From Terriglobia bacterium (GTDB lineage: Bacteria; Acidobacteriota; Terriglobia; JAIQFV01), in assembly GCA_020072965.1 (NCBI GenBank), contig JAIQFY010000006.1, positions 1 through 64,000 of the forward strand: a stretch of 64,000 bases of DNA, read 5' to 3'. Positions 8,160-59,447 of this stretch are shown here, in pieces (within the stretch, counting starts at the first letter, position 1; every line of letters starts with the position of its first letter). A program made the position numbers and the translations under genes. The notes beneath the pieces are model-generated. The model did not search any database and was not told the origin of the DNA. It was given only the letters and a program-made list of their open reading frames with translations.

Positions 8160-8185
8160 GGGGGCGCATAGCTATGCGCCCCTAC
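8160..8185. repeat. REP-like palindrome, family 2 (GGGGCGCATAGC|TATGCGCCCC + TAC)
   Basis: It is a perfect 2 x 12-nt inverted repeat ending in CCCCTAC, which reads GTAGGGG on the other strand. It lies in the AT-rich gap upstream of the hydrolase gene. Confidence 0.6.
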
Positions 8186-8305
8186 AACGAACAATCCACC
8201 ATTACCCCATATAACACTATTTCCAACGTCTGTATTAGATACGAACCAAGATGCGAGTCTATACGTATAAGCGGGAGGGAAAGTCTGTTCAGGGGGAGAT
8301 GACCT

Positions 8306-9421
8306 GTGATCAGGAAGATTTTCAAATACGTCGGAATAGCAGTCGCTTGCCTGGTGGTTGTGGTGCTCTCGTCTGCTCTGTTGTATGGAAAGTGCCTCCA
8401 GTACAAGGTTGCTGAAGAACGCGCCATTAGTTCACCCACTGGCATCAACAGCCTTGAGGCGGTGCGAATTGGCGGTATTGATCAGTGGATCGAAGTGCGG
8501 GGCCAGAATGTGAACAACCCGATTCTCCTGTTCATTCATGGTGGTCCCGGCATAGCTTTCATCCCCTTGGGGGGTGCGTTTCAGGGCCCATGGGAGAAAT
8601 ATTTCACCGTAGTGCAATGGGACCAACGGGGAGCGAGGAAGACTTACGCTTCGAATGACAAAGAACTTCTGCGCAAGTCAATGAATGTATCCCGAATGGA
8701 ACAGGACACGCTTGACGTGGTGAACTATCCTCGGAATCCCTTCAAAAGGGGAAAGATCTTTGTTCTGGGCCATTCCTGGGGAAGTATATTGGGGCTTTGG
8801 TTGGCGCACGAACATCCGGATCTCATTTTCGCTTATGTGGGAGTCGGGCAAGTCATCAACACGCACCAGAACGACGACGTCGCCTACCAGGACGCTTTGC
8901 AACAAGCACGCAAGAGCCACAATGAACAGGCGATCAAAGACTTGGAGAATATTGTGCCTTACCCTCCTCCAAACGTGGATGGGAGAAAAGAGTCGATCGC
9001 AAGAAATTGGGAAGGGCAGTTACTGGGACCACCGCCGAGCGGAGTAGCGTTCACGGATGGCAAGAGAATTGTGTCAGACCTTGTGTCGGCTCCTGAATAT
9101 TCTCTTGCGGACGTCTACGGTTTTCTCCGTGGGACTTCTTTTTCCCTAAACATTTTGCTTCCCGAAATGTGGAAAATTGATCTTAACAAACTCGGGTCCG
9201 ACTTCCGCGCGCCGATCTTCTTTTTTGAAGGAAGATACGACCAGTACTGTCGTTCTTCCTTGATTTGGGAGTACAGTCAAACCATCAAGGCTCCCCAAAA
9301 GGGATTCATCTGGTTTGAAAATTCCGGCCATTTCCCATTCTTTGAAGAGCAACAGAAATTTAGAGATGAATTGGTCCAGGAGGTTTTGCCTCTCGCCAAT
9401 TATCGCCCAGGCGGCGATTAG
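8306..9421 (+). CDS. Alpha/beta-hydrolase fold enzyme (proline iminopeptidase / epoxide-hydrolase-like) with an N-terminal TM/signal anchor
   Basis: GTG start with AGGGGGAGA 7 nt upstream. HGGPG oxyanion motif. GHSWGS nucleophile elbow (GxSxG). N-terminal hydrophobic stretch YVGIAVACLVVVVLSSALL. Confidence 0.8.
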   Translation: MIRKIFKYVGIAVACLVVVVLSSALLYGKCLQYKVAEERAISSPTGINSLEAVRIGGIDQWIEVRGQNVNNPILLFIHGGPGIAFIPLGGAFQGPWEKYFTVVQWDQRGARKTYASNDKELLRKSMNVSRMEQDTLDVVNYPRNPFKRGKIFVLGHSWGSILGLWLAHEHPDLIFAYVGVGQVINTHQNDDVAYQDALQQARKSHNEQAIKDLENIVPYPPPNVDGRKESIARNWEGQLLGPPPSGVAFTDGKRIVSDLVSAPEYSLADVYGFLRGTSFSLNILLPEMWKIDLNKLGSDFRAPIFFFEGRYDQYCRSSLIWEYSQTIKAPQKGFIWFENSGHFPFFEEQQKFRDELVQEVLPLANYRPGGD

Positions 9422-9775
9422 TCTCTTGCAGGCATGAGTTTCTTCGAGAAAGCTTCATATCGCAGACCCGCAGAGGTTGCGCACTGTTGTCGCCCGTACG
9501 GCTTCCCCATAGGAGGGGGGGATTGAAGGGGCTGGACGTGTGCGCCCGCGGTGAAGGGTGGCGGCTTCCAGATTGGCAATTTTTAACGCGGTTGACCAGT
9601 AGCGCCAGGCGAGCGAAAGGGCTGTAATCTCCAAAATCAACATTTCGGGATTACAAAGGGCAAGACTTCGATAATCCTCGCCTATTCCCCGCCAATTGCA
9701 TCTAATGGTATCTTAGGGCCATTTCGCTCATGTTAGTTCGTTTCTGAAGAGAACATCCAGCCGGATACTTGAGGT

Positions 9776-10555
9776 TTGCCAAAAACTTGGGAGCGGTGGC
9801 CAAGAGGACCTGTGGCCGGAATGTCACTTAGACTGTTGGGACAAAGTATGCACCGATCCAACGGCGATCAGGACAGACTCATGCAAGCAGGTCGGTTTCG
9901 AAACTGGTTGAGCCTTACCGCGTGGACATACTTTTATGTCGTCTTCTTGTACGGGACCTGGATCGTGGCGTGGCTGCTGGAACGGGCTCTGGGTCACCGT
10001 GTCGGTTGGATGACCACCAGCGGGGGGCAGGCCGCTTACTGGCTTGTGATGAAATTGCTGTTGTGGATAGCGCCCGCGCTCATCCTGATTCGACTCTCGG
10101 GCCGCCGCCTGAGTGAAGTCCTGGGGCTTCGGCGCCTTCGTTTGGCTCTGATGTGGGGCACGGGGGTCGGACTTTGCCTCGGGGCAGTTGTATGGATACA
10201 AAGATCGGCCGCCCATCAGCCGTTGTTTCACCCCGTCTTGAATTGGCCGTTTCTGAGCGGCGTGTGTGTTGCGCCGATAATTGAGGAGATCACCTTTCGC
10301 GGGGCGATCCTTGGGAATTTGATGCGGCGACACCGTTTTGCGGTGGCGAACACCGTGACAGCCTTTCTTTTTCTAGGCTCACATCTTCCCGGCTGGTATT
10401 TTCAGGGCCGCCTGTTCTCCTTGCTCACTCGCCCCCTCGGTGGGGGTCTCTCGATCTTTCTTCTGGGGTGGGTATTCGGTCTCGTCGCCCACAAAAGCAA
10501 GTCGGTCGCCGGCAGCACCTGGACGCATTTTCTGAACAACTTTTTCAATGCTTAA
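9776..10555 (+). CDS. CPBP-family (CAAX protease / Abi, PF02517-like) intramembrane glutamic metalloprotease
   Basis: It is a multi-TM protein with EExxFRG (IIEEITFRGAILGNL), FxxxH (FLFLGSH) and HxxxN (HFLNNF) motifs. The true start is probably the internal MQAGRFRNW (~9881). Confidence 0.75.
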   Translation: MPKTWERWPRGPVAGMSLRLLGQSMHRSNGDQDRLMQAGRFRNWLSLTAWTYFYVVFLYGTWIVAWLLERALGHRVGWMTTSGGQAAYWLVMKLLLWIAPALILIRLSGRRLSEVLGLRRLRLALMWGTGVGLCLGAVVWIQRSAAHQPLFHPVLNWPFLSGVCVAPIIEEITFRGAILGNLMRRHRFAVANTVTAFLFLGSHLPGWYFQGRLFSLLTRPLGGGLSIFLLGWVFGLVAHKSKSVAGSTWTHFLNNFFNA

Positions 10556-10673
10556 GGCGGGCGACTCCTGCCGTCAGACAATCGGAGACATCCATTGAGG
10601 AGGTTATGCAAGCTCAGCGGAATCGTCTCGCGTTTCTTTCAATCACCCGCACCACATTGATCGCGGTCCCTCT

Positions 10674-11426
10674 TCACACCTTGGGAGTGAATTGAGCCAG
10701 CTCGTAAATACCCAGGGTCCTTTCAAGCCCGGCCACGCGTTCGACGACCCCCTCGAATCCAGCCTTCCCAAAGAGCGCATGTTCCTTGTCCTCGAACTGG
10801 TCTCCCATGACGTCGAACTCATGTGCGGAGACGACGGATCGAATCGCCGGGAACAGGATGGTGTCTTCCCGTGCTTCGTGAGGCCGGTACATGCGGACGA
10901 AAAGGTCCAGATCCGTCGCCAACGCCTTTCGTTCCGCAGCGGTGCTCAGCGTTGATGCACTGGCACGAGCTTGAATCGAAGCGGTCAGGCGCCGCCCCGC
11001 CTGATGCTGCTGGCGCAGCACACGCACCAGGTCCACCAGCTTTCCGGCCTGTTCAAACCGGGGAAAGAGATGATCCTCCTCCAGCTTCTCGTGATAATCT
11101 TCGATAAAATTCCGGATGATCCCCGCGGCCCCCGCGAGAACTTCGACCGGGAAATCTTTTCCGGTGTTCAAGCGCTGGAGGATCTCCCCATAGATTAAGA
11201 GAATCCGATTTAAGACGCCGTGCTCGCGCATCAGGTCTTCGGGCGGGGATACGTCCTCGGTCGGGTTTTCGTGAATTTCTTTCGCATCCTTTCCGGCCGG
11301 CACCTTTTGGGCAGTTGAGGCTTCGGTCGGCAAGCTTGCTGTTGCGGCGACGAGCAGTCCTGCTTCCAGCAGGAATTCTCGCCGTTCACGGGGTCGTTTC
11401 ATTGCTCTTCCTCCCTTCAAGGACAA
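10674..11426 (-). CDS. Hemerythrin HHE cation-binding-domain protein with a twin-arginine (Tat)-like signal peptide
   Basis: MKRPRERREFLLEAGLLVAATASL carries an RR-x-F-L Tat motif; the likely start is at 11402. It has paired H/E-rich helices (EHGVLNRIL, HEKLEEDHLFP, HEAREDTILFP, EDKEHALFG) typical of hemerythrin-like di-iron domains. Confidence 0.65.
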   Translation of the reverse strand: MSLKGGRAMKRPRERREFLLEAGLLVAATASLPTEASTAQKVPAGKDAKEIHENPTEDVSPPEDLMREHGVLNRILLIYGEILQRLNTGKDFPVEVLAGAAGIIRNFIEDYHEKLEEDHLFPRFEQAGKLVDLVRVLRQQHQAGRRLTASIQARASASTLSTAAERKALATDLDLFVRMYRPHEAREDTILFPAIRSVVSAHEFDVMGDQFEDKEHALFGKAGFEGVVERVAGLERTLGIYELAQFTPKV

Positions 11427-11533: not shown

Positions 11534-11556
11534 AGGGCAGACGAGGACGTCTGCCC
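11534..11556. repeat. REP-like palindrome, family 3 (GGGCAGACG-AGGA-CGTCTGCCCC)
   Basis: It is a 9-bp inverted repeat with a 4-nt loop, directly 3' of the debranching-enzyme gene. The same unit occurs 3 times at 51554-51656. Confidence 0.6.
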
Positions 11557-11560
11557 CACG

Positions 11561-13633
11561 CTACACTTCTTCCATCAAGACGCGATGGATCTCGGCGACG
11601 CTCCAGGCTTGGGCCAAGCAGCCTTTTCCCGGGGGTCGCGGGGAGCCCTCTTCGGGTGGAGGGACATCACCATCAAAGAGTTCAGGAATCTGGCCCACCC
11701 CTTCGCTCAACATATACTGAATCAGAGGTTCAAGCAGGCTTCGCACGTGCTTCTTATTCCGGGTGGTGCGGGAATGGGCGTTCAAATAAGCTGTGGCGTA
11801 AGGTCCCAGCAGCCACGGCCAGACAGTACCCTGGTGATAGGAGAAATCGCGATCGTAAGCGCTCCCCTGGTACAGGCCCCGATAGTGCGAGTCGTTCTTT
11901 GCCAGTGTTCGAAGGCCGAAAGGCGTCAACAGGTGCTCCGTGACAACCGCCACGACGGGTTTGCGATGCTGTTTTTCAAGGGGGGAGAAGGGTAGCGTCA
12001 TGGCGAATAATTGATTGGGCCGGAGGGACGCATCGATGCCGCTTTCACTGACGACGTCAGACAAATATCCCGCGGCCGGGTTCCAGAAAACCTTGTTGAA
12101 ACTCTCCTGGGCTTGGCGGGCGAGGGAGGTCAATTCCTTGGCCTTTCCCCGGTCACCGAATTTTTTCGCAAAAAATTCCAGCACTTTCAGGGCATTACAC
12201 CAGAGAGCGCAAACCTCAACGGCTTTTCCGTGCCGCGGGGTAACGGCTTGCTCTCCAATCCGGGCGTCCATCCAGGTAAGTTGAACGGATTCCTCTCCGG
12301 CCGAAAGCAGGGCGTCGTCCGACATCCGAATGCCGAAACGCGTTCCCCGGCGGTGGCACTCGAAGCTTTCGATCAGGGCCTCATAGAATCTTTGTTTGAC
12401 GACTTTCAGATCGTCGGTCCGCCGAGCCAGTTCGTACACCAGATGGAAGAGCCAGAGCGTCGCGTCCGCCGTGTTGTATTCGGCTTCTTCTCCCGCCTCC
12501 GGGTGATCCACAAACCGGTTGGGGATCAATCCGTCTCGCATGGAACGAACAAAGGTGCCCAGAATCTCCCGGGCCGCCGGATAATCATCCGTAACAAAGA
12601 GGAGGCCGGGAACTGAAATCATGGTGTCCCGGCCCCAGTCCGTAAACCAGGGATACCCGGCAATGACGGTGGGGGAGTCTTTTTGCCGCCTCACCAGAAA
12701 TTGATCCGCAGCCAACCGGAAGTAGAAAGACGTCTTCTCCGTCGATTTGATTCCCTTCACCAGTCCCTGACGCCGTTCCAGCTCCCGCTGTTTTATCACT
12801 GCGAAGCGTTGAAGCTCGGCCTCTCGAGTCAGGTCAGACCATTCCTCCGCACTGGCAAAGAACCAGAGATGTGTCCCGTTCTTCACGACCGCCCGGAAGT
12901 TTCCCGGGCTGAAGAGATCCTCGGAGAAGTCGAGGCCGCGCTCCTGCTCGCGGAGGTACTCGAAGTTCTTGTACCAGTACCCGTCACGAAAAAAGAAATC
13001 CGCGGTATGGCGAATCACCAAAGGGGGAAGTCCCGGGTAGGGCGAGAATTTCGCGTGATGCTCCCCAATATCGGTGTCCCGCTGGAGGTCACTGTTTTCG
13101 TGGGTCAGAGAATGATAATTCCGATAAGCGAGGAGCGGGCGCATATCAAAGTGGGCCTCCGATTCCTGCGGCCCCGTGAAAGCGTATTCGAGACAGGTGG
13201 CATTGTGTCCGTGAACCATGAAAACAGTCTTCTGGATCTTCCAGTCGCCCACGCGAAAGGTGGCAACGGGGAAGAATAGCTTTTCAAAACGGACCAGGAA
13301 TTGATAGCCCTGGGGATGGATGGCTCCGGGAAACTGGTTGGAACTTAGATCGATCCGGGCGCCTTCGAGCACCAGCGTCTCTTCGAATTTGGAGAGCAGC
13401 ACAAACCGGTTGACTGGGGGGGCGAGCGCCGCCACCAGCAATCCATGATAGCGCCGGGTGTTCATGCCGCACAGGGTAGAGGAGGCAAACCCGCCTAGCC
13501 CATTGGTTTCAAGCCATTCCCGATGTTGGGATCGGGCCAGATTAGAGCACATGTTTTGGTCGAATTTGATCATGATTTTCCATCCATGAAAAAGAGCATG
13601 GTTGAGTCCATGAGAACTCAAGTGTTGGAACAC
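11561..13633 (-). CDS. Glycogen debranching enzyme-like / amylo-alpha-1,6-glucosidase family protein (GDE_N + GDE_C six-hairpin glycosidase)
   Basis: N-terminal NGLGGFASSTLCGMNTRRYHGLL and C-terminal (alpha/alpha)6 region with WMDA, GKAVEVCALW and YHQGTVWPWLLGPY motifs. The likely start is the internal MIKFDQ (~13573). Confidence 0.8.
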   Translation of the reverse strand: MFQHLSSHGLNHALFHGWKIMIKFDQNMCSNLARSQHREWLETNGLGGFASSTLCGMNTRRYHGLLVAALAPPVNRFVLLSKFEETLVLEGARIDLSSNQFPGAIHPQGYQFLVRFEKLFFPVATFRVGDWKIQKTVFMVHGHNATCLEYAFTGPQESEAHFDMRPLLAYRNYHSLTHENSDLQRDTDIGEHHAKFSPYPGLPPLVIRHTADFFFRDGYWYKNFEYLREQERGLDFSEDLFSPGNFRAVVKNGTHLWFFASAEEWSDLTREAELQRFAVIKQRELERRQGLVKGIKSTEKTSFYFRLAADQFLVRRQKDSPTVIAGYPWFTDWGRDTMISVPGLLFVTDDYPAAREILGTFVRSMRDGLIPNRFVDHPEAGEEAEYNTADATLWLFHLVYELARRTDDLKVVKQRFYEALIESFECHRRGTRFGIRMSDDALLSAGEESVQLTWMDARIGEQAVTPRHGKAVEVCALWCNALKVLEFFAKKFGDRGKAKELTSLARQAQESFNKVFWNPAAGYLSDVVSESGIDASLRPNQLFAMTLPFSPLEKQHRKPVVAVVTEHLLTPFGLRTLAKNDSHYRGLYQGSAYDRDFSYHQGTVWPWLLGPYATAYLNAHSRTTRNKKHVRSLLEPLIQYMLSEGVGQIPELFDGDVPPPEEGSPRPPGKGCLAQAWSVAEIHRVLMEEV

Positions 13634-14175: not shown

Positions 14176-14796
14176 TTGAACAAAAAGCGAGCCGACTCTC
14201 TCATGAAGTATTGGGTGAAAGAGCTCATCATAGCGTTCATTGGATCTTGTGGAGCACCGCCTGACCGGAGCGCGGGGCGAAGGCGCTCAAGCGGCGGGTT
14301 TTCATCGCTGGAACTACTCTTCGTCGTCATGATAGTACTCATCATGAGTACCCTGGCTCTCCCGAATATGCTTGAGATGCGCAACAACTACAACTTGCAG
14401 GGCGACTTGCGACTCGTGCAGGTCATGATCCAGACCGGACGTTACAACGCCATTTCACATGGGCGGCAGTATCAGGTTGTTATGCAGACCGATCCCCATC
14501 AGGTTCGGTTGCAGGTGGACGACACGGCTGATCCGCAGGATCCATTGCACGTTCCCAATTTTGTGAATTGTCCGAACGATCAGTATTGTCGGGGCGTGAG
14601 TCCCGTTTCACTCTCGCGAGGCGTACAGTTTGTCAGGGGAGGAACCCTAACGTGCGTTTTCAATGGCAGCGTGACCGGAACGGGGTTTGACACTACCCCA
14701 ACAGGCGAGCCTTATGTGGAAGTAAGAAACAAGAAACATGAGTATCAAGTGGCGGTTTCCCCCCTGGGACGAGTACGCCTCGTGAGGGTTAAGTAA
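14176..14796 (+). CDS. fimT: Type IV pilus minor pilin / pseudopilin, FimT/GspH-like (class III signal peptide)
   Basis: Prepilin motif ...RRRSSGG|FSSLELLFVVMIVLIMSTLAL (G-1, F+1, E+5). The size and C-terminal beta region resemble GspH/FimT. The leader is unusually long, and an internal start at ~14203 is possible. Confidence 0.7.
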   Translation: MNKKRADSLMKYWVKELIIAFIGSCGAPPDRSAGRRRSSGGFSSLELLFVVMIVLIMSTLALPNMLEMRNNYNLQGDLRLVQVMIQTGRYNAISHGRQYQVVMQTDPHQVRLQVDDTADPQDPLHVPNFVNCPNDQYCRGVSPVSLSRGVQFVRGGTLTCVFNGSVTGTGFDTTPTGEPYVEVRNKKHEYQVAVSPLGRVRLVRVK

Positions 14797-14810
14797 CAGA
14801 GGGCATCTCG

Positions 14811-15467
14811 ATGAACTCAGATGTCTTGAAGGGTACCTCAGGCGGAGCAGGATCCGAAGCGAGGCGGCCCATTCGAGCCAACCCTGACCTTGGGTTCTCC
14901 ATTCTCGAGCTGATGATTGCGATTGTAGTCCTGCTTTTCGGCTTCATTGCGATGATCAATTTGATTGCCACGAGCATCGTTGTCAATCGGACTTCCAATC
15001 AGTTGACCTTGCTCACTCTATTGGCCTCCGATAAGCTTGAACAATTGAGGACCCTGGACATCAGCGATCCACAAATACAAGTCCCATCGGGTTCTTTGAA
15101 TGCAGGATCGCTTAATGACGATTCGACCCAGGATGTCGGGGGCACCCGGGTTTCATACTTTGACAACGTTTTTGTCAACCCGCGTGATGGCTCCATCACG
15201 CGCACGGGAGGTCTCGACGGCGAGGGTGAGCACGAGTCCGTCACTCGAACCATGGGAGGGACGACCACCACAACGTCCTCGGATGCTGTGCAGGCGCAGT
15301 TGAGTTATCGCCGAAGGTGGTTGATTCAGAAGGATCCGGCGGTCCTTGCGGGGGCGATCCGGATTACCGTGGAAGTGGCAGTCGGAACAAACACGGGGTC
15401 GGACGCGAACCCCGCCCAGGCCCCCACCGGTGATCGCCAAGTGATCCGTATGACAGCAGTGCGCTGA
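14811..15467 (+). CDS. pilV: Type IV pilus minor pilin PilV-like
   Basis: Prepilin motif ...NPDLG|FSILELMIAIVVLLFGFIAMINL (E+5). It is a paralog of 20285..20971. Confidence 0.7.
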   Translation: MNSDVLKGTSGGAGSEARRPIRANPDLGFSILELMIAIVVLLFGFIAMINLIATSIVVNRTSNQLTLLTLLASDKLEQLRTLDISDPQIQVPSGSLNAGSLNDDSTQDVGGTRVSYFDNVFVNPRDGSITRTGGLDGEGEHESVTRTMGGTTTTTSSDAVQAQLSYRRRWLIQKDPAVLAGAIRITVEVAVGTNTGSDANPAQAPTGDRQVIRMTAVR

Positions 15468-15496
15468 AGAAGCAGGGTAGGGTCAAGACGCCGAGA

Positions 15497-16579
15497 GTGT
15501 TGTCGGCAAAGGTTTCGCAGAGAGTGGGCGATCAGCCATGTCAAATCTTCCTATGTCCCCCAGGCCAGCAATGCCCCATCGCAGTCCCCGGGTATTCCCC
15601 GGGAAAGGACGCCGCACGTCGGGTTAGGTCCGGCTTGGATATGGTCTCGGCCGATCTCGCCAACGCAGGCTCGAACCTGGGCGCGGCAGGGCATGTTGGC
15701 TTTCCATTTCCTGTTATTGTTGAGAAGAACTACAGCCAAACCACTTTTTATCCCACTCCTTACAGCTTTGACAGAATCACTATCTTTCAAGGTATGAATC
15801 CGAACAGCTGCGATTACCTCCCGCCATCGTACCTTAGCGATATGCACGGAACGGGGACAGGGGTGAACAGCTCAGGGCAGACGAGCAACGGCCCGACCTT
15901 GTTCGTTGGGGACGATCAGAATCCAATCCCTTTTCCAAGCTACCCGGACTGTAACGCTGCTTGTAACGCAAGTATGGAGGCCCAATTTCGATGCGCCGCC
16001 AACCGGCTCCCCAGCGGATCTTTTGTTGTGGTCATCAATATTGACCCTAACGATCCAAACTACCGCCAGATTGCACCCATGACTCTGACACAAAACGCGA
16101 GTGTTGATGCTGGCGGTCTTCGAGTCAATCTCAACCACGACCCTCAAGGAGATAGCAGTGGCGGGCTTTATCCCCTGCAACAGGTTCCACGGAACAGGTT
16201 GGGTACGGAATTTCCACGCGGATCCCTGATTGTAAAGTTGGCTCCGCCGATCACTTACTCGGTTGACGTCACTGATCAAGAGCATCCTGTGCTGATCCGC
16301 TCGACGCAGGCCGGCTCAGCCGCAAACCCAACGTCGATCCCCGTGGCAACGAACATCCTCGGTTTCTCGCAGCGGGCCCAACTGCCGACTGGGATCTTCG
16401 ATAATCCGGCGGATTACCTCCCCCAACCGAATGATTTTTCGCTGATTCAGGCCTTGGAGGTGATGGTCGCCGGGAGGACCGAGAGCGGACGCATCGATGA
16501 ATATAAGAGCGCTATCGATCCGACCAGGACGTTTCGGTTGAACACCTTGTCCACAACGACTGCCCTGCGAAACAAATAA
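15497..16579 (+). pseudogene. pilW: PilW-like minor pilin paralog lacking the N-terminal class III signal peptide and hydrophobic helix; probably decayed or non-functional
   Basis: From RVRSGLDMVSADLANAGSNL onward it aligns with paralog 21039..22175. The ~45 aa that carry GFTLLEMLVGIALMVVLGG in the paralog are replaced here by a non-hydrophobic sequence (QIFLCPPGQQCPIAVPGYSPGKD). No frame of 15468-15620 encodes a prepilin helix. Confidence 0.5.
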
Positions 16580-16586
16580 TAGTGAT

Positions 16587-18665
16587 TTGAGGTGTCCCAT
16601 GAAGCCCCCTATATTTTCCCCAGGACCCTATAAGATCGCCCGCCGTGTTCCCTCCAGGCCGGAAGGGGAAAGAGGGATGGCTTTGATCACAGCCCTCATC
16701 TTCCTGGGCGTGGCCATGCTGCTTGGGCTCTCCATCTTGCTCACCACCTCCAGCGACGTGTTCCTCAGTAGTTCGATGCGGAATACCAAGACCGCCTTTT
16801 ACGCCGCCGACGCGGGAGTCAGTGTCATGCGCAAGACCTTAGTGGACGCCTTGAAAGCGCAAACTCCAGCCAGCGGTACGAGCGCAAATACTGTTTTTGA
16901 TTGCTCCGATGATCCTACTTCTGCATTTAACAAATTGATTCTGAACGCGGCGCTGGCGAACGCCGGCAACGGATCGCAACAGACGGTAAGCTCCTACTCC
17001 AGTTATGGGGATTCGGCAGCCGCATTTACGATCGATACACGCAGCGATGGAGCTCAACCCCGCACCTTTTTCAAATGCATCAACCGCGGCAAGGTGACCC
17101 CTGTCCCCATACCACCCGATGCTTCGCACAACGAGACTTACAATTTTGCTTATCAAATTACCTCGAATGGGACGTCGGGGGGCCTTGCCTCCAGCACGGT
17201 CATTGAGCAGGGGACCATTTCGTACAACTTCAATGTCAATGTCAGTCAGCCGCTCTACTTTTTATCAGGGTTTGGAATGTTGCTAAACAATTTTGATCCC
17301 CACAATCCGCCCGGACCGCTTCCTTCCGGCAGGTACACTGGACCTGCTCACACCAATGGAGAATGGGGATTCACGAATGACCCCCCCGGCTACTATGAAT
17401 TCACTGACCAGATCAGCAGTGTCAGCCCGAATGCATATTACGTTTTCGCCGGACCGCCTCCCTTTTCGGAGGACGTCCCGAAGAGTACCGATACCCATAC
17501 GACCGGAAGAATTGCGCCCATATACGATGCCGGGTCAGGGGTCAATTTCGGAGCGGCGAGCGTGCAATTTCCGACGGATTCAAGTAACCAGCTCCACGCC
17601 GTGATTGATGGCTCCGGCTACAATGCCAGCAGTCCTTTCGCACCACAGGCAGGCCTCTCGGACCCTGATTTCCAAACCGCGATGCACAACACACTGGTGG
17701 CCGCCAACAGTTCGCCCTATAACGGCGCCAACGGGGTATACATCCCCGTATCCGTGTCGCGGGATCGGAATGGGAACCCCCTGTCCTGGCAGACCAGGGG
17801 CGGCGGGATTTTCGTCAATGGAAACGTCGATAACCTGACACTGGATGCGCGAACACCGGGATTACAGATCTATATCATCGTCCAGGGCGGACTCACCACG
17901 ACCCTCACTTATAACCTGAACGCGCGGACAACAACGATTCAAAGTGGGGCCTCTTCATTCACGGCTCCGGGATTGCCGACAAATAATCTTCCTTTCCGCA
18001 GTCCGGGTCAGCGTACCTCCCCTGCGACCTCGATTTCGTTCTATGTCAATGGGTCGATCAGCAGCATGCACGGACCGGTTGATGCTTCGGGACAGCAACT
18101 GAATGATGCGGTTACGAAACTACCGATGCCTGGCGTGCAAGATGGCGCCGCCGTGACCATCACCGCGACAGGGGATGTGGAGGTCACGGGGAGTGTGCTT
18201 TACCGTAGTGCTCCTGTGACGACGGCACCAGCAAACACCGCCGGAACCCTCATCCCGGCCAACGACTACGGCCAGGCGCTTGGAATTTACTCCCAAACCG
18301 GGAACATCTATCTTAATGTCGACCATATCCCCTCCCATAATATTGAAGTCGATGCGGCGCTGGCAGCTGTGCACGGAACAGTGACCTGGTCTGGTACGAC
18401 TCGACCCCCAAACGTGACGATCATCGGAGGACGCGTCCAGAACCAACCCGGGTCTATGGGGATCCAGAATACCGTGTTGTTCGATCGGCGCTTTGGGGCC
18501 GGTTTGTATGCTCCGCCGTTCTTTCCGTATATCAATGCATCGAATTTTGCTTTGGCGGGCGCCACCTATGCATTTGCGGTGGTGTGTACCCCCGCGCCCT
18601 GTTTGCCCAAGGCCGTCCCCACGAGCTATTCCGTCCCCTCGCGAATGGTGGCCCCGGCACAATAG
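16587..18665 (+). CDS. pilX: Large PilX-like minor pilin (PilX_N-type N-terminus plus ~600-aa C-terminal region), putative pilus-tip/adhesin component
   Basis: N-terminus ...ERGMALITALIFLGVAMLLGLSILLTTSSDVFLSSSMRNTKTAFYAADAGV matches the PilX N-terminal domain pattern (G-aLi.aLi.L.v..LLg...........s.....AF.AAeAG). It is 692 aa, against ~200 aa for canonical PilX. It is a paralog of 22193..24307. Confidence 0.65.
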   Translation: MRCPMKPPIFSPGPYKIARRVPSRPEGERGMALITALIFLGVAMLLGLSILLTTSSDVFLSSSMRNTKTAFYAADAGVSVMRKTLVDALKAQTPASGTSANTVFDCSDDPTSAFNKLILNAALANAGNGSQQTVSSYSSYGDSAAAFTIDTRSDGAQPRTFFKCINRGKVTPVPIPPDASHNETYNFAYQITSNGTSGGLASSTVIEQGTISYNFNVNVSQPLYFLSGFGMLLNNFDPHNPPGPLPSGRYTGPAHTNGEWGFTNDPPGYYEFTDQISSVSPNAYYVFAGPPPFSEDVPKSTDTHTTGRIAPIYDAGSGVNFGAASVQFPTDSSNQLHAVIDGSGYNASSPFAPQAGLSDPDFQTAMHNTLVAANSSPYNGANGVYIPVSVSRDRNGNPLSWQTRGGGIFVNGNVDNLTLDARTPGLQIYIIVQGGLTTTLTYNLNARTTTIQSGASSFTAPGLPTNNLPFRSPGQRTSPATSISFYVNGSISSMHGPVDASGQQLNDAVTKLPMPGVQDGAAVTITATGDVEVTGSVLYRSAPVTTAPANTAGTLIPANDYGQALGIYSQTGNIYLNVDHIPSHNIEVDAALAAVHGTVTWSGTTRPPNVTIIGGRVQNQPGSMGIQNTVLFDRRFGAGLYAPPFFPYINASNFALAGATYAFAVVCTPAPCLPKAVPTSYSVPSRMVAPAQ

Positions 18666-20270: not shown

Positions 20271-20284
20271 AGTGGGGCATTCTT

Positions 20285-20971: not shown

Positions 20972-21038
20972 AGAGACGGCGTGGGTTGGCAAGAAGATGG
21001 GCGCCGGGCTCTCTATCTTCGCGAAAAGTGAGTGAGTC

Positions 21039-22175: not shown

Positions 22176-22192
22176 CGAATTGAGGTGCCATT

Positions 22193-29579: not shown

Positions 29580-31460
<1,881 letters not shown>

Positions 31461-44791: not shown

Positions 44792-44825
44792 GAGGCCTCC
44801 TGGTCTTCCGGAGTGTTCCGGGAGA

Positions 44826-46658: not shown

Positions 46659-46704
46659 TACTCAGTTTCGTTGGGTGATAGGAGCTGGATCGAGCAGGAA
46701 GTAT

Positions 46705-46930: not shown

Positions 46931-47036
46931 AAACCCTTTGTGATTTAACACATCCACCGAGTACAATCCCTGCAGCGTCTTCCAGGTTTCGTCCAGAACA
47001 GATCTAAATGATGAAGTGAGAATCCGAGAGGAGCCC

Positions 47037-47423: not shown

Positions 47424-47530
47424 TTTCAAACCGGCAACCCAACCACACGGTCGAGTCGCATTGGAGAGGCAATCGGTCGGGGACACCTTGAACCCAAGTC
47501 CGCTGTGCTACCCCCTGAATCCAACTTAGT

Positions 47531-48715: not shown

Positions 48716-48920
48716 TCAGGGTCGACGGCCCGACTTACAGCTGGATGCGATTTCACCTGGACGCTGCAGCTCAGCGAATCCGGCATCGAGGGAGAAAATG
48801 TTCTGCTCAGGTTGAATCACCGCTCCGCAGGGGTGGGCAAAGACCAGGATCACCAGTGCATCGCAGGGTTCACAAAGCCTCCACCGATTTTCCGACTTCT
48901 TCTCCAACAAGGACAACAAC

Positions 48921-50927: not shown

Positions 50928-51070
50928 AGGACCGATCCTCCCAGGTCGTGGGTTCCGGTCGATCTCATTAATTCATGTGGGGATTGTGAGGGCGACTTCG
51001 GGATAAGCGCTTCACCGTAATTGGATCAATACCCAGGCAGGAAAATAGGCATCTAAAGGAGCAGAGTGGG

Positions 51071-51532
51071 ATGGTTCAAACGTTGTTGTGGGTTCACGTT
51101 CTCGGCGCGGCCCTTGTCTTGGGCGGTGTTGTGGCGGGATGGGTTTGCATGAACCAGGCGGCGATTGTGGGAGATGCGAAGGTAACCCTGTTTGCGTTGA
51201 AGGCGATGCGCCGTTTGAACACATGGACGCTGCACTTGGGGTCCGCCCTGGTTTTGATGAGTGGATTCTGGATGGCACTCGCAGGGCCAGTCCCTCTGAA
51301 GCTCAGTGCCAATCCATGGTTGTTGTATTCGGTCATTCTATATTTTGTGATTCTGTTCCTGGTGACAGGGGCGCAATCACCCATTAGCAAAAAAGTAATG
51401 GCATTGGCAGAAAAGGATGGGCCTGATTTTGGGGTGATTTTCTCAAGAATTGTTGGTCACTGGAAAATGCTTTCAGGAATCAACGTCTTCCTGCTGGCAG
51501 TGATTCTATTTCTCATGGTGTTTAAGCCTTAG
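51071..51532 (+). CDS. DUF2269-like small integral membrane protein (4 TM)
   Basis: Four hydrophobic helices; AGGAG upstream of the ATG. Confidence 0.55.
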   Translation: MVQTLLWVHVLGAALVLGGVVAGWVCMNQAAIVGDAKVTLFALKAMRRLNTWTLHLGSALVLMSGFWMALAGPVPLKLSANPWLLYSVILYFVILFLVTGAQSPISKKVMALAEKDGPDFGVIFSRIVGHWKMLSGINVFLLAVILFLMVFKP

Positions 51533-51553
51533 GAGCGAGCGTCATTTTTGAGT

Positions 51554-51574
51554 GGGGCAGACGTCCCGTCTGCC
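51554..51574. repeat. REP-like palindrome family 3, copy 1 of 3 (GGGGCAGACG-TCC-CGTCTGCC)
   Basis: 9-bp inverted repeat. It is followed by TGCTTATT and could double as the terminator of the DUF2269 gene. Confidence 0.55.
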
Positions 51575-51595
51575 TGCTTATTCCAAGCTACACAA

Positions 51596-51617
51596 GGACA
51601 GACGAGATGTCTGCCTC
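51596..51617. repeat. REP-like palindrome family 3, copy 2 (GGACAGACG-AGAT-GTCTGCC)
   Basis: Degenerate unit, 21 nt after copy 1. Confidence 0.5.
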
Positions 51618-51634
51618 CCCTTCTGGTTTGAACA

Positions 51635-51656
51635 GGGCAGACGAGACGTCTGCCCC
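51635..51656. repeat. REP-like palindrome family 3, copy 3 (GGGCAGACG-AGA-CGTCTGCCCC)
   Basis: Near-identical to the 11534-11556 copy. It lies 18-30 nt upstream of the AsmA-like gene start. Confidence 0.55.
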
Positions 51657-51673
51657 ACCACGGCGCTCAGCGA

Positions 51674-54600
51674 TTGAGATGGAAGATGGCCGAAACAGAA
51701 CAGAAAAAGACGGTATCCAGTGCTAAAGCGAAAGCCGTGGATTTCTGGCATCATCGCTCGAGGGCGACACGCCTGGAGCTTTTGCTGCTGGTGGTGGTGT
51801 TTCTGTTCTTTGAATTCATCGTCCCGACGATTCTCGGTAGCCAGTATTCCAAGCGTTTCTTCGAAAAACATCTCAGCGACGCGCTTCGGTATCCCGTGAC
51901 CTTCGATCGCATTAATACGAACCTCTTCGGCCGCCCGGCGTTGTGGGTGGGAGGTATGAACATTCAGGATCACGAGGGACATCCTTTCTTCAGGGGCGAC
52001 GAGGTGAAAATGGAGTTGAGCCCCTGGGCGCTCCTTCGCGGTCATATTGTGCTGAATCTCATCCGGCTGGTGGACGGCGACTTTCTGGCCGCCCGCCTCC
52101 CCGATGGGCGATGGAATATCGCCGACCTCGTGTCAGCGGGAAACGATCCCGATCGAGCCATCGATCTCGAAAAGACCGCCGTTGAGATGAGGAACATGGT
52201 CGCTACCATCCAGGACCAAGCCTTGCCCCTCCCCCTGGTACAACATATCCGCCTGCGAGATTTTTCCATCTCCACCCTGGACATTCGACGCAAGACGCGC
52301 TTGCAGATAGACGCCATCGATGACGACCATCCCGAATCCAGTCTCGAGGTCAAGGGCAATTTTGCTGTGTTCGTCCCGGACGACCTCAGCACACTCAGTG
52401 GAAATCTCGATCTGACCCTGAAACATTTCAACCTCCAGATTTTGAATTCCTATTTGGGGTCAACCAAGTCTCAGGTGAAGGGGTTCGAGGGCTTCTATGA
52501 TATTCAATTAAAGATGGAAGGGCAGGGATCTTCTCCCATCTCCATCATTCTGCGCTCAAAAGCCGACCAGTTGAGAGTGGCCATCGACGCAACCTCATCC
52601 GGAGCCTCCGGTTCCGCAGGGTCCACTCATCCCAGTCCAGAGGCCTTGAACCGCGGCAGAAAATGGATCGACTTCAAAACCGCTTCACTGGAGGGCCTGG
52701 TGGGCCTGTCCACCGATGAAATTCGGTTCACTAAACTCAATGGAGAGCTGGCGTCCACTCATTTCGAGATGGACGGCCGAGTTTACAACCTGCACACCAG
52801 GATGCCTCGTTTGGAGACCTCCGTTTCAACGAGTGAGTTCGAAATCGCTGATCCCCTTCGATCGCTGATTGATGCGGAACTGGATGAGTTCGGAAGACGG
52901 ATTTTCGCGGGACTGACCGGGACCGCTCGGGCACAACTGATTTGGACCGGAAGGCTCGATGACCCGACATTCGACTGGCGGGCTGAACTGAAGAAAAGTC
53001 AATATCGAAATGATCAGTATGAATTCCAACTGAAGGACATTGTTTCCGTGATGCGGTCCAACGGCAAGAAGACTCAGATCGACTCCCTGGGAGCCCAATT
53101 CTTCAACTCCCCTTTGCAAGTCTCCGGCTGGGTCGATGAGAAGGACCGGGTGAATATGAAGCTTTCTCTCCCGGCGGTCCCACTCGGTCAGATTTATCCA
53201 TTCATGAAACGGCTTCGGAGCCAGGGTTACTTGGCTTCCATGCCATGGTTGGATCGGGTCCCCAGCGTAAGTGGTCGAGGCCACGCGGAGTTACTCGTAA
53301 CCGGAGACCTGGATCACCCGGAGGCGGCTGGAACCCTGTCCATAGCCGGGACACGGATCCAGCTCGCAGGACTCTCTTTCCCGATCGAGAACGTGGAGGG
53401 TCGGGTAGTGCTGAAGGACAGGGTCGTTTGCGCGCATCAGTTTTATCACAGGGCCGTTTGCGCGGACCCGATTTCCGGATCTTTGGGGGATTCTCCCTTC
53501 GAGCTGGAGGCGGTACTGGATCCGAAGGAGTTCTCGCTGTTGGCCTTGCACTTCAGGTCTCCGTCTATGAATTTGCACCGATATGATGAACTAACGTCCT
53601 CGCGCTGGATCGATCGGGTGGATTTGCCAATAGTCGGGCAGATCAAGGGAGCCGACGGGGTCGCCGACATTCAGCTGGACTATCCTTCAGGCGGTGTGCG
53701 CCGTGCCGCTCCGATCTCCAGACCGGTCGCCCAAGTTTCGGGCCTGGATGGCGAAGCAGACGGCGAGGACGATCCGGTCCTTCTGAATGAATCCGGGAGA
53801 CTTCCGGAGTTTTCCCTGCAAATGCGTAATCTGCGAAATGGCGGCGCCGTGCTGTCCAACGTGGCGCTGCCACTCAAGGGCTTTTCCGGCGGGCTCATCT
53901 ACAGCGGCGATAGGCTGAGGTTTCGTCATTTGGAAGGGTCCTTGGGGGACTCTTCGTTGTCGCTGGATGGAGGGATCGAACAGCTGAATGAATTGGGGGA
54001 ACGATGGGATCTCAAAGCACAAATGAGCGCCGCGTTTCCGCAGATGTCCTTATTGCTCCCGGCGGCATGGAAAAACCAGATTACCGCGGAAGGGCAGTTC
54101 CCCGTCACCATTTCATTCCTAGGCGAAAGGAACGATCAGCTCGAGGTTCGCGCCGAGGTCAATTTTCCAGAATCAGCCCAACTGAGACTTGCCCGTTCGT
54201 TCGAAAAGCCCGTGGGCACCTCAAGCCACCTTTCTCTTGACGGCGTATGGAAAAACCAAGCCTTTGACATCAATGAAGGAAATCTCACGCTGGGCGAACT
54301 TCCCTTGGCGGTCCATGGCACGCTGGATTTTTCGGAGACTCTTGGGGTGGAGATGGCCCTGACCGCCGCGATGGACCAGTTCGCTCCCGTGACGACGCTC
54401 CTGAAGTTCGTCAAGCTCCCGGCAACCTCCCTGAGTGTTCGTGGCGGATCGGCTTCCGGCTCCGTAACGCTCTCGGGGAACCCGAGTGATCCCGAGGTGA
54501 GTTCGACCTTGAGACTTGCAGACGTATCGGTAGACGGGATGCCCTGGGGACCAACGAGTCTGACGGGAGATCTGACCGTCGGAACCGGGGGCGTTTCCGC

Positions 54601-55621
54601 CAGGGATTTTCTGGCCATTGTGAATAAACTCCCCATGCGCGTGACAGGCACTCTGAATCTAAATGGACCACAGCCCGCTCTGAGCGCTGAGGTGGACAAC
54701 CTGAATCTCGATGCCCTGGTGACAACTCTGGCCCGCATGTCACCGGGGGCAGAGGCGCCTCCCTCCGGGGCCGCCGGCAAAATGATGACCATCGATGTAA
54801 GAGCTTCGAGCGGAGTGTTTTTTCATCAGCCCATCAAGAAATTCGTGGCGCATGGAACCTGGGACGCCGCAGTGATTCAGCTGGACCCGATGGAGGTGAC
54901 CGCGGGCGGCAGCACGAGCAACGCCGCTATCACTTGGAAATCGCGAACGAATGAGGAGCATTTGAAGTTTGAATCCCGCGATGTGCCCATGGGAGCGTTC
55001 CTCGACGAGATACTTGATATCCAGATCCCCGTGGAAGGAAAACTCACGGTCCAGGGAGACTTGACGTCTCGTAACACCGATCCCCAGAATCTATTGGCGT
55101 CCCTGGTGGGCAATGCGCATTTTGATGCCTCTCAAGGGACCCTGCACTATGCCGGTTTGCCCCAGCGCCTTTTGTCGATGGCAACCCTCGTGCATGAGGG
55201 GTTGTTCGGTTTTAACCTGGGGCGCATTTTTCAAACCATCGATCCTCCCCAGTTCAAGCAGTTCAAATCCTGGTCCGCTGATGTGACCTTTTCTCCGGAC
55301 GGTTCTGCACGACTGGAGCGAAGTGATTTCAAATCGGAGTTGTTCGACCTGACCGCCACCGGGACCGTTAATACCAAAACAGAGGATATGGTCATCAACG
55401 TCAAAGGATCTTTGCCTGAAATCCCTCATAGCTCGAATTTCCTCGCCCAAATCTTCGGGCAGATCTCCATACGCGGTATATACCGGAATGTCGCTGATTT
55501 TACACTCTTGATTACGGGCCAGCGCAAGAAGATCAAGCCGCGCCGCTATAACTTTGAATTTAAGTTGACGGGGAATCTCGAGGGGATTAAGTCGATTGAA
55601 GATTTTCGTTTTGTCAAATGA
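51674..55621 (+). CDS. AsmA/TamB-like giant envelope protein (N-terminal TM anchor + extended beta-rich region; outer-membrane biogenesis / lipid transport family)
   Basis: 1315 aa with an N-terminal anchor LELLLLVVVFLFFEFIVPTILG and AsmA-N-like RYPVTFDRINTNLFGRPALWVGGMNIQ. Long repetitive beta-rich body and a conserved C-terminal segment. The start is probably ATG 51686. Confidence 0.7.
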   Translation: MRWKMAETEQKKTVSSAKAKAVDFWHHRSRATRLELLLLVVVFLFFEFIVPTILGSQYSKRFFEKHLSDALRYPVTFDRINTNLFGRPALWVGGMNIQDHEGHPFFRGDEVKMELSPWALLRGHIVLNLIRLVDGDFLAARLPDGRWNIADLVSAGNDPDRAIDLEKTAVEMRNMVATIQDQALPLPLVQHIRLRDFSISTLDIRRKTRLQIDAIDDDHPESSLEVKGNFAVFVPDDLSTLSGNLDLTLKHFNLQILNSYLGSTKSQVKGFEGFYDIQLKMEGQGSSPISIILRSKADQLRVAIDATSSGASGSAGSTHPSPEALNRGRKWIDFKTASLEGLVGLSTDEIRFTKLNGELASTHFEMDGRVYNLHTRMPRLETSVSTSEFEIADPLRSLIDAELDEFGRRIFAGLTGTARAQLIWTGRLDDPTFDWRAELKKSQYRNDQYEFQLKDIVSVMRSNGKKTQIDSLGAQFFNSPLQVSGWVDEKDRVNMKLSLPAVPLGQIYPFMKRLRSQGYLASMPWLDRVPSVSGRGHAELLVTGDLDHPEAAGTLSIAGTRIQLAGLSFPIENVEGRVVLKDRVVCAHQFYHRAVCADPISGSLGDSPFELEAVLDPKEFSLLALHFRSPSMNLHRYDELTSSRWIDRVDLPIVGQIKGADGVADIQLDYPSGGVRRAAPISRPVAQVSGLDGEADGEDDPVLLNESGRLPEFSLQMRNLRNGGAVLSNVALPLKGFSGGLIYSGDRLRFRHLEGSLGDSSLSLDGGIEQLNELGERWDLKAQMSAAFPQMSLLLPAAWKNQITAEGQFPVTISFLGERNDQLEVRAEVNFPESAQLRLARSFEKPVGTSSHLSLDGVWKNQAFDINEGNLTLGELPLAVHGTLDFSETLGVEMALTAAMDQFAPVTTLLKFVKLPATSLSVRGGSASGSVTLSGNPSDPEVSSTLRLADVSVDGMPWGPTSLTGDLTVGTGGVSARDFLAIVNKLPMRVTGTLNLNGPQPALSAEVDNLNLDALVTTLARMSPGAEAPPSGAAGKMMTIDVRASSGVFFHQPIKKFVAHGTWDAAVIQLDPMEVTAGGSTSNAAITWKSRTNEEHLKFESRDVPMGAFLDEILDIQIPVEGKLTVQGDLTSRNTDPQNLLASLVGNAHFDASQGTLHYAGLPQRLLSMATLVHEGLFGFNLGRIFQTIDPPQFKQFKSWSADVTFSPDGSARLERSDFKSELFDLTATGTVNTKTEDMVINVKGSLPEIPHSSNFLAQIFGQISIRGIYRNVADFTLLITGQRKKIKPRRYNFEFKLTGNLEGIKSIEDFRFVK

Positions 55622-55705: not shown

Positions 55706-56005
55706 ATGAAACGATTCAGGCAAGGAAGTTGGCAGAAGGGTTGTACGCTGGTCATATTTGCAGCGGTTCTGTTGAGCACCGTGTACTACTTCGCGGCCAG
55801 CGAGGATGATTTGGCGAGGCTGAAGCCCGGAATGACCAAAGATGCTGTCATCGAGACCATGGGGAAGCCGGATTCCAGGGGCGAGAAGAAAGGAGAGGAT
55901 CCTTGTGGCTGGTTCATCTACAAGAATGTCGGGCACTACAAGTATGTTCAGATCTGGTTTGATTGCCAGGACAAACTGGTGGGCATCGACAAGGCGTCGA
56001 AATAA
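55706..56005 (+). CDS. BamE/SmpA-OmlA-like small outer-membrane lipoprotein
   Basis: AGGAGG SD 5 nt upstream. Signal or lipobox-like N-terminus. LKPGMTKDAVIETMGKPD is the SmpA/OmlA fold signature. Confidence 0.6.
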   Translation: MKRFRQGSWQKGCTLVIFAAVLLSTVYYFAASEDDLARLKPGMTKDAVIETMGKPDSRGEKKGEDPCGWFIYKNVGHYKYVQIWFDCQDKLVGIDKASK

Positions 56006-56007
56006 GG

Positions 56008-56414
56008 CCAGTTCTCAGTTGTCAGTTCTCAGTTGCCAGTGAAGACAACCGGAAGCCAGAGGCCGGATGCAGGAGGCCGGAGGTCAGAAGTCAGAAAAGC
56101 AGTTGCCAGTTGCCGGTTCTCAGTTCTCCGAGAAGAGCAGGGAAGACTGGAAGCAATATACCGGGGGTCACCTTTTGCAATTCATAATGAAGGGCGCTAT
56201 GAATTGTGGATCCTCAGACTTTGAACTTTGAACCTTAAACTTTGAACTGGGTCTTAGGCTTTGGACTTGCCTTTTTGAACTTGGAACTTTGAACTGGTTC
56301 TTTTGGACCTTGGACTTGGGACGTTGGACTTGCCTTTTTGAACTTGGAACTTCGAACTGGTTCTTTTGGACCTTGGACTTGGGACGTTGGACTTGCCTTT
56401 TTGAACTTGGAACT
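56008..56414. repeat. Low-complexity, short-tandem-repeat-rich element B (CAGTTCTCAGTTGCCAG blocks, GGCCGGAGGTCAGAAGTC blocks, ACTTTGAAC blocks, and 2.4 tandem copies of a 63-nt unit at 56261-56414); inverted relative of element A
   Basis: Unit TTGGACTTGCCTTTTTGAACTTGGAACTTYGAACTGGTTCTTTTGGACCTTGGACTTGGGACG repeated. The block order mirrors the reverse complement of 46705-46930. Confidence 0.6.
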
Positions 56415-58872: not shown

Positions 58873-59030
58873 GTTGACCGGAAGAAAGACGAAATGATTT
58901 TGGGAGTCACATCTCCCCAATCTGCAATTGACCAAGGGTTCGGACCCGTAGAGCGGCCAAGGACGGCTCGTTCGTACAGCGAAGTCCGAATCACTGGATG
59001 TCGGATCCCACCTAGCTCGTTGCACAAATC

Positions 59031-59051
59031 CCCCCGACGGAAGTCGGGGGA
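59031..59051. promoter_or_regulatory. GC-rich palindrome CCCCCCGAC-GGAA-GTCGGGGG
   Basis: 8-bp arms with a 4-nt loop, in the intergenic region upstream of the recombinase gene. Confidence 0.3.
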
Positions 59052-59101
59052 ATATTCAGGTCCAACCTACATAAACGCCTCCCACCCCTGCACTCTGATC
59101 C

Positions 59102-59127
59102 CCCCGATCCCCCGCGGGGGATCGGGG
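59102..59127. promoter_or_regulatory. Perfect loop-less 26-nt palindrome CCCCGATCCCCCG|CGGGGGATCGGGG (contains two GATC sites)
   Basis: 13-nt arms, exact, preceded by a direct GATCCCCC repeat. Candidate dimeric-protein binding site or cruciform. Confidence 0.35.
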
Positions 59128-59411
59128 AGACCGGATGGAGGAAGAAGAACGCGAGGTGTGGTAGGCTGAATCTGAAGAATCCACCGGCTGCCGCCGGTGG
59201 TATTATGAATTACAGTATCGCATCTCCCATGCAAGCGAGGACAGGCATCGACATTAGTCGCTGGTGTGTAAAGATGGGCTAATATCGACCATGTAATCTG
59301 AGCTCATTTTTGAATTGCCGAATGTCTGTTCATGACTTCTCTTCCGCCAATTTCGTTCCTTCTACAAAACCTGGAAATAGAGTTACGAGGAGTAATTGTG
59401 GGATTTTCTCG

Positions 59412-59447
59412 GTAGGGGCGTCCGCCGCGGCGGACTATGCGCCCCTA
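59412..59447. repeat. Degenerate REP-like palindrome, family 1 (GTAGGGGCGTCCGCCGCGGCGGAC-TAT-GCGCCCCTAG)
   Basis: It carries a 3-nt insertion and a terminal C>G change relative to the 27385 copy. It is followed by the same ~40-nt conserved motif as the 29504 copy. Confidence 0.5.

Follow-up and report, generated by a model that had tools for sequence, protein, structure and literature searches.

Palindromes with a GTAG/CTAC hallmark are scattered between the genes of a 64,000-nucleotide stretch of Terriglobia (Acidobacteriota) DNA (GenBank assembly GCA_020072965.1, contig JAIQFY010000006.1, positions 1 to 64,000; hereafter the window). The questions raised by this locus are whether the palindromes are repetitive extragenic palindromes (REPs), what unites them, and to which type of REP-associated tyrosine transposase (RAYT or TnpA_REP, encoded by rayT) they belong. 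The original prediction, read from the letters alone, had described three dispersed families and had recognized in GTAG the hallmark of REPs mobilized by RAYTs in proteobacteria. We conclude that the palindromes are very probably genuine REPs with a GT[AG]G foot, belonging to the double-foot or long-canonical type, in a Terriglobia metagenome-assembled genome (MAG). Their REP anatomy and the match of family 2 to REPs that flank a RAYT gene bear out the RAYT part of the prediction, but the type is not proteobacterial. Its match is TnpA_REP subclass 2.4, a group found across many phyla.

Number and design of the palindromic units

The palindromes were confirmed by pattern searches, by direct reading of the loci, and by a scan for footed hairpins, with shuffled sequence as the control. 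The window (GC content, ~56%) contained 15 palindromic units at 11 intergenic sites, a density of ~2.3 units per 10 kb, where approximately none would be expected by chance. Under a strict definition of a unit (a GT[AG]G+GG foot and a stem of at least 9 with at most 1 mismatch), 8 units were detected in the window versus a mean of 0.03 in 30 shuffles. The unit hairpins had folding energies of -12 to -21 kcal/mol and z-scores of -5 to -9. A search of the window against Rfam at the gathering thresholds matched no family, and a tRNA/tmRNA search of the window also found none.

A single scheme runs through all three families, namely a GT[AG]G foot, GGG, a variable stem with a short loop, and CCC. 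The GT[AG]G foot was present on every well-preserved unit; the feet and the three G-C basal pairs were constant, and the stem stayed complementary while varying. The copies assigned to the three dispersed families are real, but the families represent one design, because they have the foot and the GGG/CCC base in common and the stem covaries. Seven units, including the degenerate copy at 59412 (3′ CTAG), carry a double foot (5′ GT[AG]G and 3′ CTAC), and the inverted doublets are built of single-foot units with the feet outermost.

In regards to family 1, the proposed perfect 32-mer was found exactly at 27385–27416 and 28398–28429, and with 3 mismatches at 29504–29535 (0 copies expected), and a degenerate form was present at 59412–59447. 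The family-2 units at 8158–8185 (the start being 8158 and not 8160), 27439–27466, and 39880–39907 (0 expected) and their partners at 24464–24489, 24509–24533, and 39831–39856 were also recovered. Family 3 was present at 11534–11559 and as a triple array at 51552–51576, 51596–51616 (degenerate), and 51634–51659, but its GTGG feet (minus strand, 11556–11559 and 51656–51659; plus strand, 51552–51555) had been overlooked, as had a unit at 37933–37959 and repeats of ~145 nt around 8158, 29504, and 59412.

The inverted pairs are likewise real. The regions 24460–24537, 39827–39911, and 51548–51662 each folded as a single long hairpin (-28.3, -34.5, and -35.1 kcal/mol; z -7.4, -8.4, and -7.7, respectively). 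Stem and spacer sequences differed among the three doublets, and no doublet recurred at several loci. The proposed resemblance to bacterial interspersed mosaic elements (BIMEs) is a loose analogy, and these structures are better described as REP doublets, or as similar to REPINs (REP doublets forming a hairpin).

The proteins encoded by the window are identical to GenBank MBZ5535283–MBZ5535301, which belong to a MAG named Acidobacteriia/Terriglobia, and the window is contained in the ENA metagenome contig ERZ27248265:k141_2064989 (132,756 bp). An assembly artefact was considered and rejected; records of the proteins of the window exist in NCBI, ENA, and Logan data, on 4 contigs.

Distribution in other genomes and metagenomes

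We scanned one genome per GTDB species for the family-1/2 design using the pattern GTAGGGGCGNNCN{4,8}GNNCGCCCCTAC, and at least 119 stretches were obtained. Among the matches listed, the loci carried the labels of at least 10 phyla (Chloroflexota, Cyanobacteria, Planctomycetota, Latescibacterota, Gemmatimonadota, Desulfobacterota, Nitrospirota, Firmicutes, Acidobacteriota, and others), and their GC content ranged from 0.35 to 0.72. The free NN/NN positions were complementary in 114 of these 125 cross-genome matches versus ~8 expected, and 66 of the 125 were perfect palindromes. The structure is conserved across genomes, with a covarying inner stem. Acidobacteria are absent from the phyla previously listed with GTAG REPs (Di Nocera 2013).

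The family-1 32-mer, with Y/R variants allowed, occurred as single copies in 41 JGI metagenome contigs (GC, 0.42–0.68). REP-type palindromes of the form GTAGGGGCG...CGCCCCTAC were also observed in 42 predicted viral contigs of IMG/VR (L178–L219); no rayT was found in the fetched stretches of these contigs.

Relation to RAYT genes of subclass 2.4

The six-frame open reading frames (ORFs) of 119 loci, chosen solely by the palindrome, were searched with the E. coli RayT from NC_000913. Genes with HUH and Tyr motifs were found in L045, L114, L044, L035, and L078, and the palindrome thus lay in or abutted such a gene at 5 of the 119 loci among the matches listed. In these genes, the palindrome is read in frame and is preceded by the HUH motif (MPNHIHGI) and followed by the Tyr motif (WQRNYYEH). 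The Pfam cut-off of PF01797 (Y1_Tnp) was exceeded by two of the three proteins tested, both of which are close relatives of the P0034 gene family described below, and the degraded L035 protein gave no match. A palindrome supplies the stop codon of rayT in L035. This gene (L035:4993–5721) also has a REP-like hairpin just 5′ of its start, an in-frame inverted doublet inside, and a disrupted Tyr motif region in addition to its REP-foot stop. In a Dehalococcoidia MAG, L078:7456–7701 is a rayT remnant that comprises the C-terminal half only and begins at the REP inside the gene, which would suit a deletion or rearrangement with its endpoint at the hairpin.

Family 2 ties the window to a gene of this kind. 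The P0034 gene (L167–L170) is flanked by the family-2 24-mer GTAGGGGCGCACAGC[C/T]GTGCGCCC, which is also embedded in frame within it. The flanking REPs are GTAGGGGCGCACAGCCGTGCGCCC, 36 nt upstream, and GTAGGGGCGCACAGCTGTGCGCCC, 5 nt downstream; the upstream 24-mer is identical to window 27443(-) and 39884(-), and the downstream one is 1 base off 39831(+). The P0034 protein contains VGAHGCAPL, which is encoded by GTAGGGGCGCACGGCTGTGCGCCCCTAC, the sequence type of the 27439 and 39880 units. The density in L167–L170 was 9–11 REPs per ~9.8 kb. The arrangement that marks a REPtron, in which the same REP flanks tnpA_REP, is therefore seen for family 2 in another organism. In four independent assemblies, this subclass-2.4 rayT (L167:5148–5732) is located within a type I restriction-modification operon, between hsdS and hsdM.

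At E≤1e-10, at least 7,957 proteins were retrieved as homologues, many of which carry the name "REP element-mobilizing transposase RayT". VGAHGRAPL, VGATGRSPL, or VGANGRSPL was present in nearly all of the best 120 homologues, and a covariation rule imposed by the DNA palindrome (H..A, T..S, N..S) was obeyed by 106 of the 109 homologues with a GAxG[RC]xP motif. A literature search on REP-encoded peptides found no papers. Subclass-2.4 TnpA_REP (Bertels group 4) is marked by "long canonical" REPs, whose stem base has three G-C pairs, by REPs of the "double foot" kind, and by REPs inserted in frame in the gene (Quentin et al. 2018, BMC Genomics 19:475). The in-frame REP in rayT is thus not new, because the description of this subclass has already been published.

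Placement relative to genes

The coding map of the window comprises 41 genes, with 86.3% of the sequence coding and 13.7% non-coding. As predicted, the repeats are dispersed through intergenic regions; all 11 REP sites were within non-coding DNA (P ~3e-10). REPs were found in both of the 2 convergent gaps, in 8 of the 27 same-direction gaps, and in 1 of the 4 divergent gaps; same-direction gaps thus account for 8 of the 11 sites. Three stop codons are formed by REP feet, namely those of a phosphoenolpyruvate (PEP)-mutase gene and of both convergent genes at 37933–37959. Stop-codon donation by GTAG ends and a bias to the 3′ sides of genes are known traits of REPs (Di Nocera 2013).

The first site is a 28-nt double-foot REP (GTGG...CTAC) at 8158–8185 with a family-2-like stem (GCGCATAG/CTATGCGC; -13.3 kcal/mol, z -5.1). 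A single-foot family-3 REP on the minus strand, GTGG-GGCAGACG-TCCT-CGTCTGCC (11534–11559), follows 1 nt past the TAG stop of the glycogen-debranching gene 11561–13633(-). The inverted doublet at 24464–24533, with outer feet, consists of GTAGGGGTGCACAGACGTGCACCCC at 24464–24489(+) and its partner at 24509–24533(-), after which lies a T-run (T8), the only one that follows a unit. The first perfect 32-nt palindrome of family 1, a double-foot REP (27385–27416; -20.6 kcal/mol, z -6.2), is situated 42 nt past the stop of the gene 24847–27342, and the single-foot family-2 REP GTAGGGGCGCACAGCCGTGCGCCC at 27439–27466 (minus strand) is identical to REPs flanking rayT in L167–L170. The second perfect 32-mer, also double-footed (28398–28429), is the copy that had been said to begin inside a stop codon, and its GTAG indeed contains the TAG stop (28399–28401) of the PEP-mutase gene 27559–28401.

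The family-1 variant at 29504–29535, a double-foot REP with 3 differences, one of which is a G.T pair, lies between the convergent DinB-family and thiC genes. The double-foot REP GTAGGGCGACCAGACTGGTCGCCCTAC at 37933–37959 (-14.8 kcal/mol, z -9.1) gives, with its two ends, the TAG stops of 37199–37936(+) and 37956–39830(-); the convergent genes closed in this manner encode a metallo-beta-lactamase-fold protein and an acyl-CoA dehydrogenase. The inverted family-2 doublet at 39831–39907, with outer feet, comprises 39831–39856(+) and 39880–39907(-) and separates the stop of fadJ from the start of the acyl-CoA dehydrogenase gene. One copy had been reported to abut a start codon, and the ATG at 39828–39830 does abut the 39831 REP, but the ATG at 39804–39806, which has AAGGA 7 nt upstream, could serve as the start just as well, so this placement is uncertain. 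In the family-3 array (51552–51659), the outer units, 51552–51576(+) and 51634–51659(-), pair with each other around the degenerate 51596–51616 unit. The last site is the degenerate family-1 REP at 59412–59447 (z -2.0), which has an insertion of ~5 nt and the 3′ CTAG and lies upstream of the gene for a XerC-like recombinase.

Comparison with a related MAG

The MAG GCA_020073085.1 (locus L172) shares synteny with window 39884–54823, at ~85% nucleotide identity. The family-3 array has 3 units in the window versus 1 in L172, where the DUF2269 gene at the array is also missing its 3′ portion. At the 39880 position, L172 has a different, GTGG-footed stem that still forms a perfectly paired hairpin. 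The alignment ends at 39884, inside the 39880 unit, and the 39831 unit has no counterpart; the synteny break thus coincides with the doublet. The units at orthologous sites, the change in copy number, and the end of synteny indicate that the REPs here are long-lived and recombinogenic.

The composite repeat of ~145 nt

Three REPs occupy the centres of a composite repeat of ~145 nt, with copies at 8104–8244 (minus strand), 29446–29588 (plus strand), and 59353–59501 (plus strand) (nhmmer E-values of 5e-40, 7e-43, and 1e-41, respectively). The central REPs are those at 8158, 29504, and 59412. The repeat has AT-rich arms and inverted ends of ~18 nt (ATCTNATACAGAYG ... CRWTYGTATTAGAT), and the central REP core varies by copy (28, 32, or 36 nt) inside the conserved arms. 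The second copy takes up the gap between the DinB-family gene and thiC and extends over the stop codon of thiC (29580–29582). In the sequence searched, the arms were found at these three window loci only, and the other 12 REP units are without them. A search of Rfam around a composite copy at E≤1 gave no match.

The ~18-nt inverted ends paired in RNA folds and in an alifold consensus of the 3 copies. The DNA folds of the composites were only weakly better than those of shuffles (z -0.9 to -2.5), and the RNA folds of the two strands were about equally good. The idea of a long hairpin was therefore set aside, and the composites are termed here a repeat with inverted ends and not a proven hairpin. 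The composite may be an element similar to a transposable element of the miniature inverted-repeat type (MITE), or a REP that was duplicated along with its flanks.

Other features of the window

A repeat of ~100 nt occurs twice, at 46800–46930 and 55990–56120, and contains heptamer-like runs of CAGTTCT/CAGTTGC followed by GGAAGTC/GGAGGTC; the first of the two is conserved at L172 7708–7787 in the related MAG. The thiC leader (31452–31612, minus strand) had no match to the thiamine pyrophosphate (TPP) riboswitch even at E≤10 and holds a perfect 20-nt palindrome, AAATCTCCGTACGGAGATTT, at 31540–31559. Two successive four-gene clusters (14176–18665 and 19662–24307) have matching product sizes of ~200, 220, 370, and 700 aa, and the final gene of the second cluster is named as a PilX N-terminal domain protein; both clusters look like duplicated pseudopilin-type operons. 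Window 1–3787, in the first ~4 kb, has a GC content of 65.5% compared with ~56% elsewhere and is spanned by a single minus-strand open frame of at least 1,262 codons (GC3, 0.83) that runs past the window start.

Discussion

As a whole, the observations are best explained, in our judgement with good confidence, by REP elements of the GT[AG]G-footed class residing in a Terriglobia MAG. By analogy with the TnpA_REP proteins of E. coli, Stenotrophomonas, and Marinomonas, the hairpin would be bound on single-stranded DNA by the HUH/Tyr nuclease TnpA_REP (RAYT), which would take the GT[AG]G foot as a guide and cut and rejoin the DNA beside the hairpin. Such a reaction would spread copies into intergenic DNA. 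Inserted copies may then persist 3′ of genes and be transcribed as hairpins in 3′ untranslated regions (UTRs), where they probably stabilize or punctuate mRNAs; some copies supply stop codons, and copies may act as sites of recombination and rearrangement. We infer mobilization by a RAYT in the host genome from published biochemistry and from the identity of family 2 with the REPs of a REPtron in another organism. An enzyme of subclass 2.4 (RAYT group 4), with its gene outside the window, is the likely partner.

Several results weigh against this explanation. No RAYT-like ORF was found across the 64-kb window, as the original prediction had also stated, and a second homologue search for the host rayT, performed with P0034 and cluster accessions, returned no acidobacterial names or accessions. 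Families 1 and 3, sought through their encoded peptides, were not found beside or inside 237 sampled RAYT genes, and no rayT was found in the 41 JGI contigs that carry family 1. In the GTAG superfamily (Di Nocera, De Gregorio & Rocco 2013, BMC Genomics 14:522), the tag is unpaired at one end, whereas the window tag is often paired with CTAC. The same study reports GTAG REPs in other phyla and, in Acidobacteria, Y1 transposases (TIRYTs) flanked by unrelated inverted repeats. Finally, REPs at orthologous sites at 85% identity point to long persistence, and current mobility can thus only be presumed.

The host rayT was also sought by contig extension, which yielded one edge protein only on a 3.8-kb Logan contig and no record of the other. 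P0111 was considered as the host rayT and discarded because it came from an unrelated sample.

The alternative that survives best, although we consider it unlikely, is that the hairpins are relics or domesticated elements, immobile after the loss of rayT and selected as 3′-UTR stabilizers, attenuators, or translation-coupled regulators near stops. The occurrence of units at orthologous sites in a MAG diverged by ~15%, including a 39880 stem that differs and yet forms a perfect hairpin, is consistent with this alternative, as are the three stop codons made of REP feet and the failure to find rayT in the window. However, the two 32-mers located 1 kb apart are 100% identical, and the 32-mer also occurs in 41 unrelated metagenome contexts, which argues for recent spread or conversion. 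Furthermore, a T-run follows one unit only, and none of the units is at one of the terminator-like sites predicted at 22–41 kb.

A rather improbable alternative assigns the REPs to a Y1 transposase of the acidobacterial type associated with terminal inverted repeats (TIRs) (TIRYT, or class 3) instead of subclass 2.4, with the 145-nt composites as the true mobile unit for three copies. Acidobacteria hold a sharply defined TIRYT group, class 3 is enriched there, and three REPs do lie within a conserved 145-nt repeat with inverted ends. Against this assignment, class 3/TIRYT genes are described with atypical structures that have no GT[AG]G foot, the other 12 units have no arms, and the pairing of the arms is weak as DNA (z -0.9 to -2.5).

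The perfect 27–32-bp dyad symmetry would also suit immobile sites for a dimeric DNA-binding protein, such as operators or nucleoid sites, but this is very unlikely, given that the stems change compensatorily with only the feet and the GGG base fixed, that most units are at gene 3′ ends, and that the same sequences occur in genomes labelled with at least 10 phyla and inside transposase ORFs. Intrinsic terminators arisen in place, suggested by GC-rich hairpins 3′ of genes and by the T8 after 24509–24533, are equally unlikely, because none of the 17 terminator-like sites at 22–41 kb coincides with a REP, most units lack a T-run, and an origin in place could not give identical copies at loci that are unrelated.

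The REP interpretation can be extended by a joint proposal in two parts, which together we regard as doubtful. In the first part, the rayT-embedded hairpin would be a heritable "seed", and the near-identical 28–32-nt REPs found in genomes labelled with at least 10 phyla, at loci of 35–72% GC, would be re-seeded from the in-frame rayT copy after each horizontal transfer. In the second part, the 145-nt repeat would be a new chimeric, non-autonomous element whose interchangeable core links REP systems to the TIR-flanked Y1 transposases typical of Acidobacteria.

Among the known systems, the subclass-2.4 REPs (Quentin 2018) share with the window a long perfect stem that has the GT[AG]G foot directly at its base, three G-C basal pairs, and versions with 5′ GT[AG]G and 3′ C[TC]AC, and window family 2 is identical to REPs that flank, and lie in frame within, a 2.4-type gene. 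The window differs in that its host belongs to the Acidobacteriota, the cognate gene was not seen in 64 kb, family 1 (the 32-mer) and family 3 (GTGG-GGCAGACG) have so far no tie to a rayT gene, and three copies are in a 145-nt repeat. The GTAG superfamily resembles the window in its terminal GTAG/GTGG tag, GC-rich stem of 6–13 bp, dimers with outer tags, location between same-direction or convergent ORFs, and tags that give TAG stops. In regards to the REPINs of Pseudomonas fluorescens (Bertels & Rainey 2011), two inverted REPs ~20–60 nt apart likewise form one long hairpin; unlike REPINs, however, the window doublets each have their own sequence, and many units stand alone, so replication as a doublet is unsupported. 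The E. coli REP/BIME system with TnpA_REP (RayT, subclass 2.2) has in common the GTAG guide, recognition of the hairpin by an HUH-Y1 enzyme, and extragenic high-copy repeats, whereas in E. coli the REP palindromes are imperfect, contain a bulge, and have defined BIME spacers, and the relationship of E. coli RayT to the 2.4-type proteins is only distant (E 2e-6 to 0.03).

The element class and the in-frame REP in subclass-2.4 rayT have already been published, and no new mechanism is therefore claimed. For annotation, the findings carry a warning that assemblies are broken at REPs and that REPs give rise to small spurious ORFs encoding, for example, the peptide VGAHGRAPL. The window also provides a worked example of the effects of REPs on a genome, through the donation of stop codons, the change in array copy number, and the coincidence of a doublet with a synteny breakpoint. 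The known hosts of double-foot REPs with a GT[AG]G foot thereby come to include the Acidobacteriota (Terriglobia).

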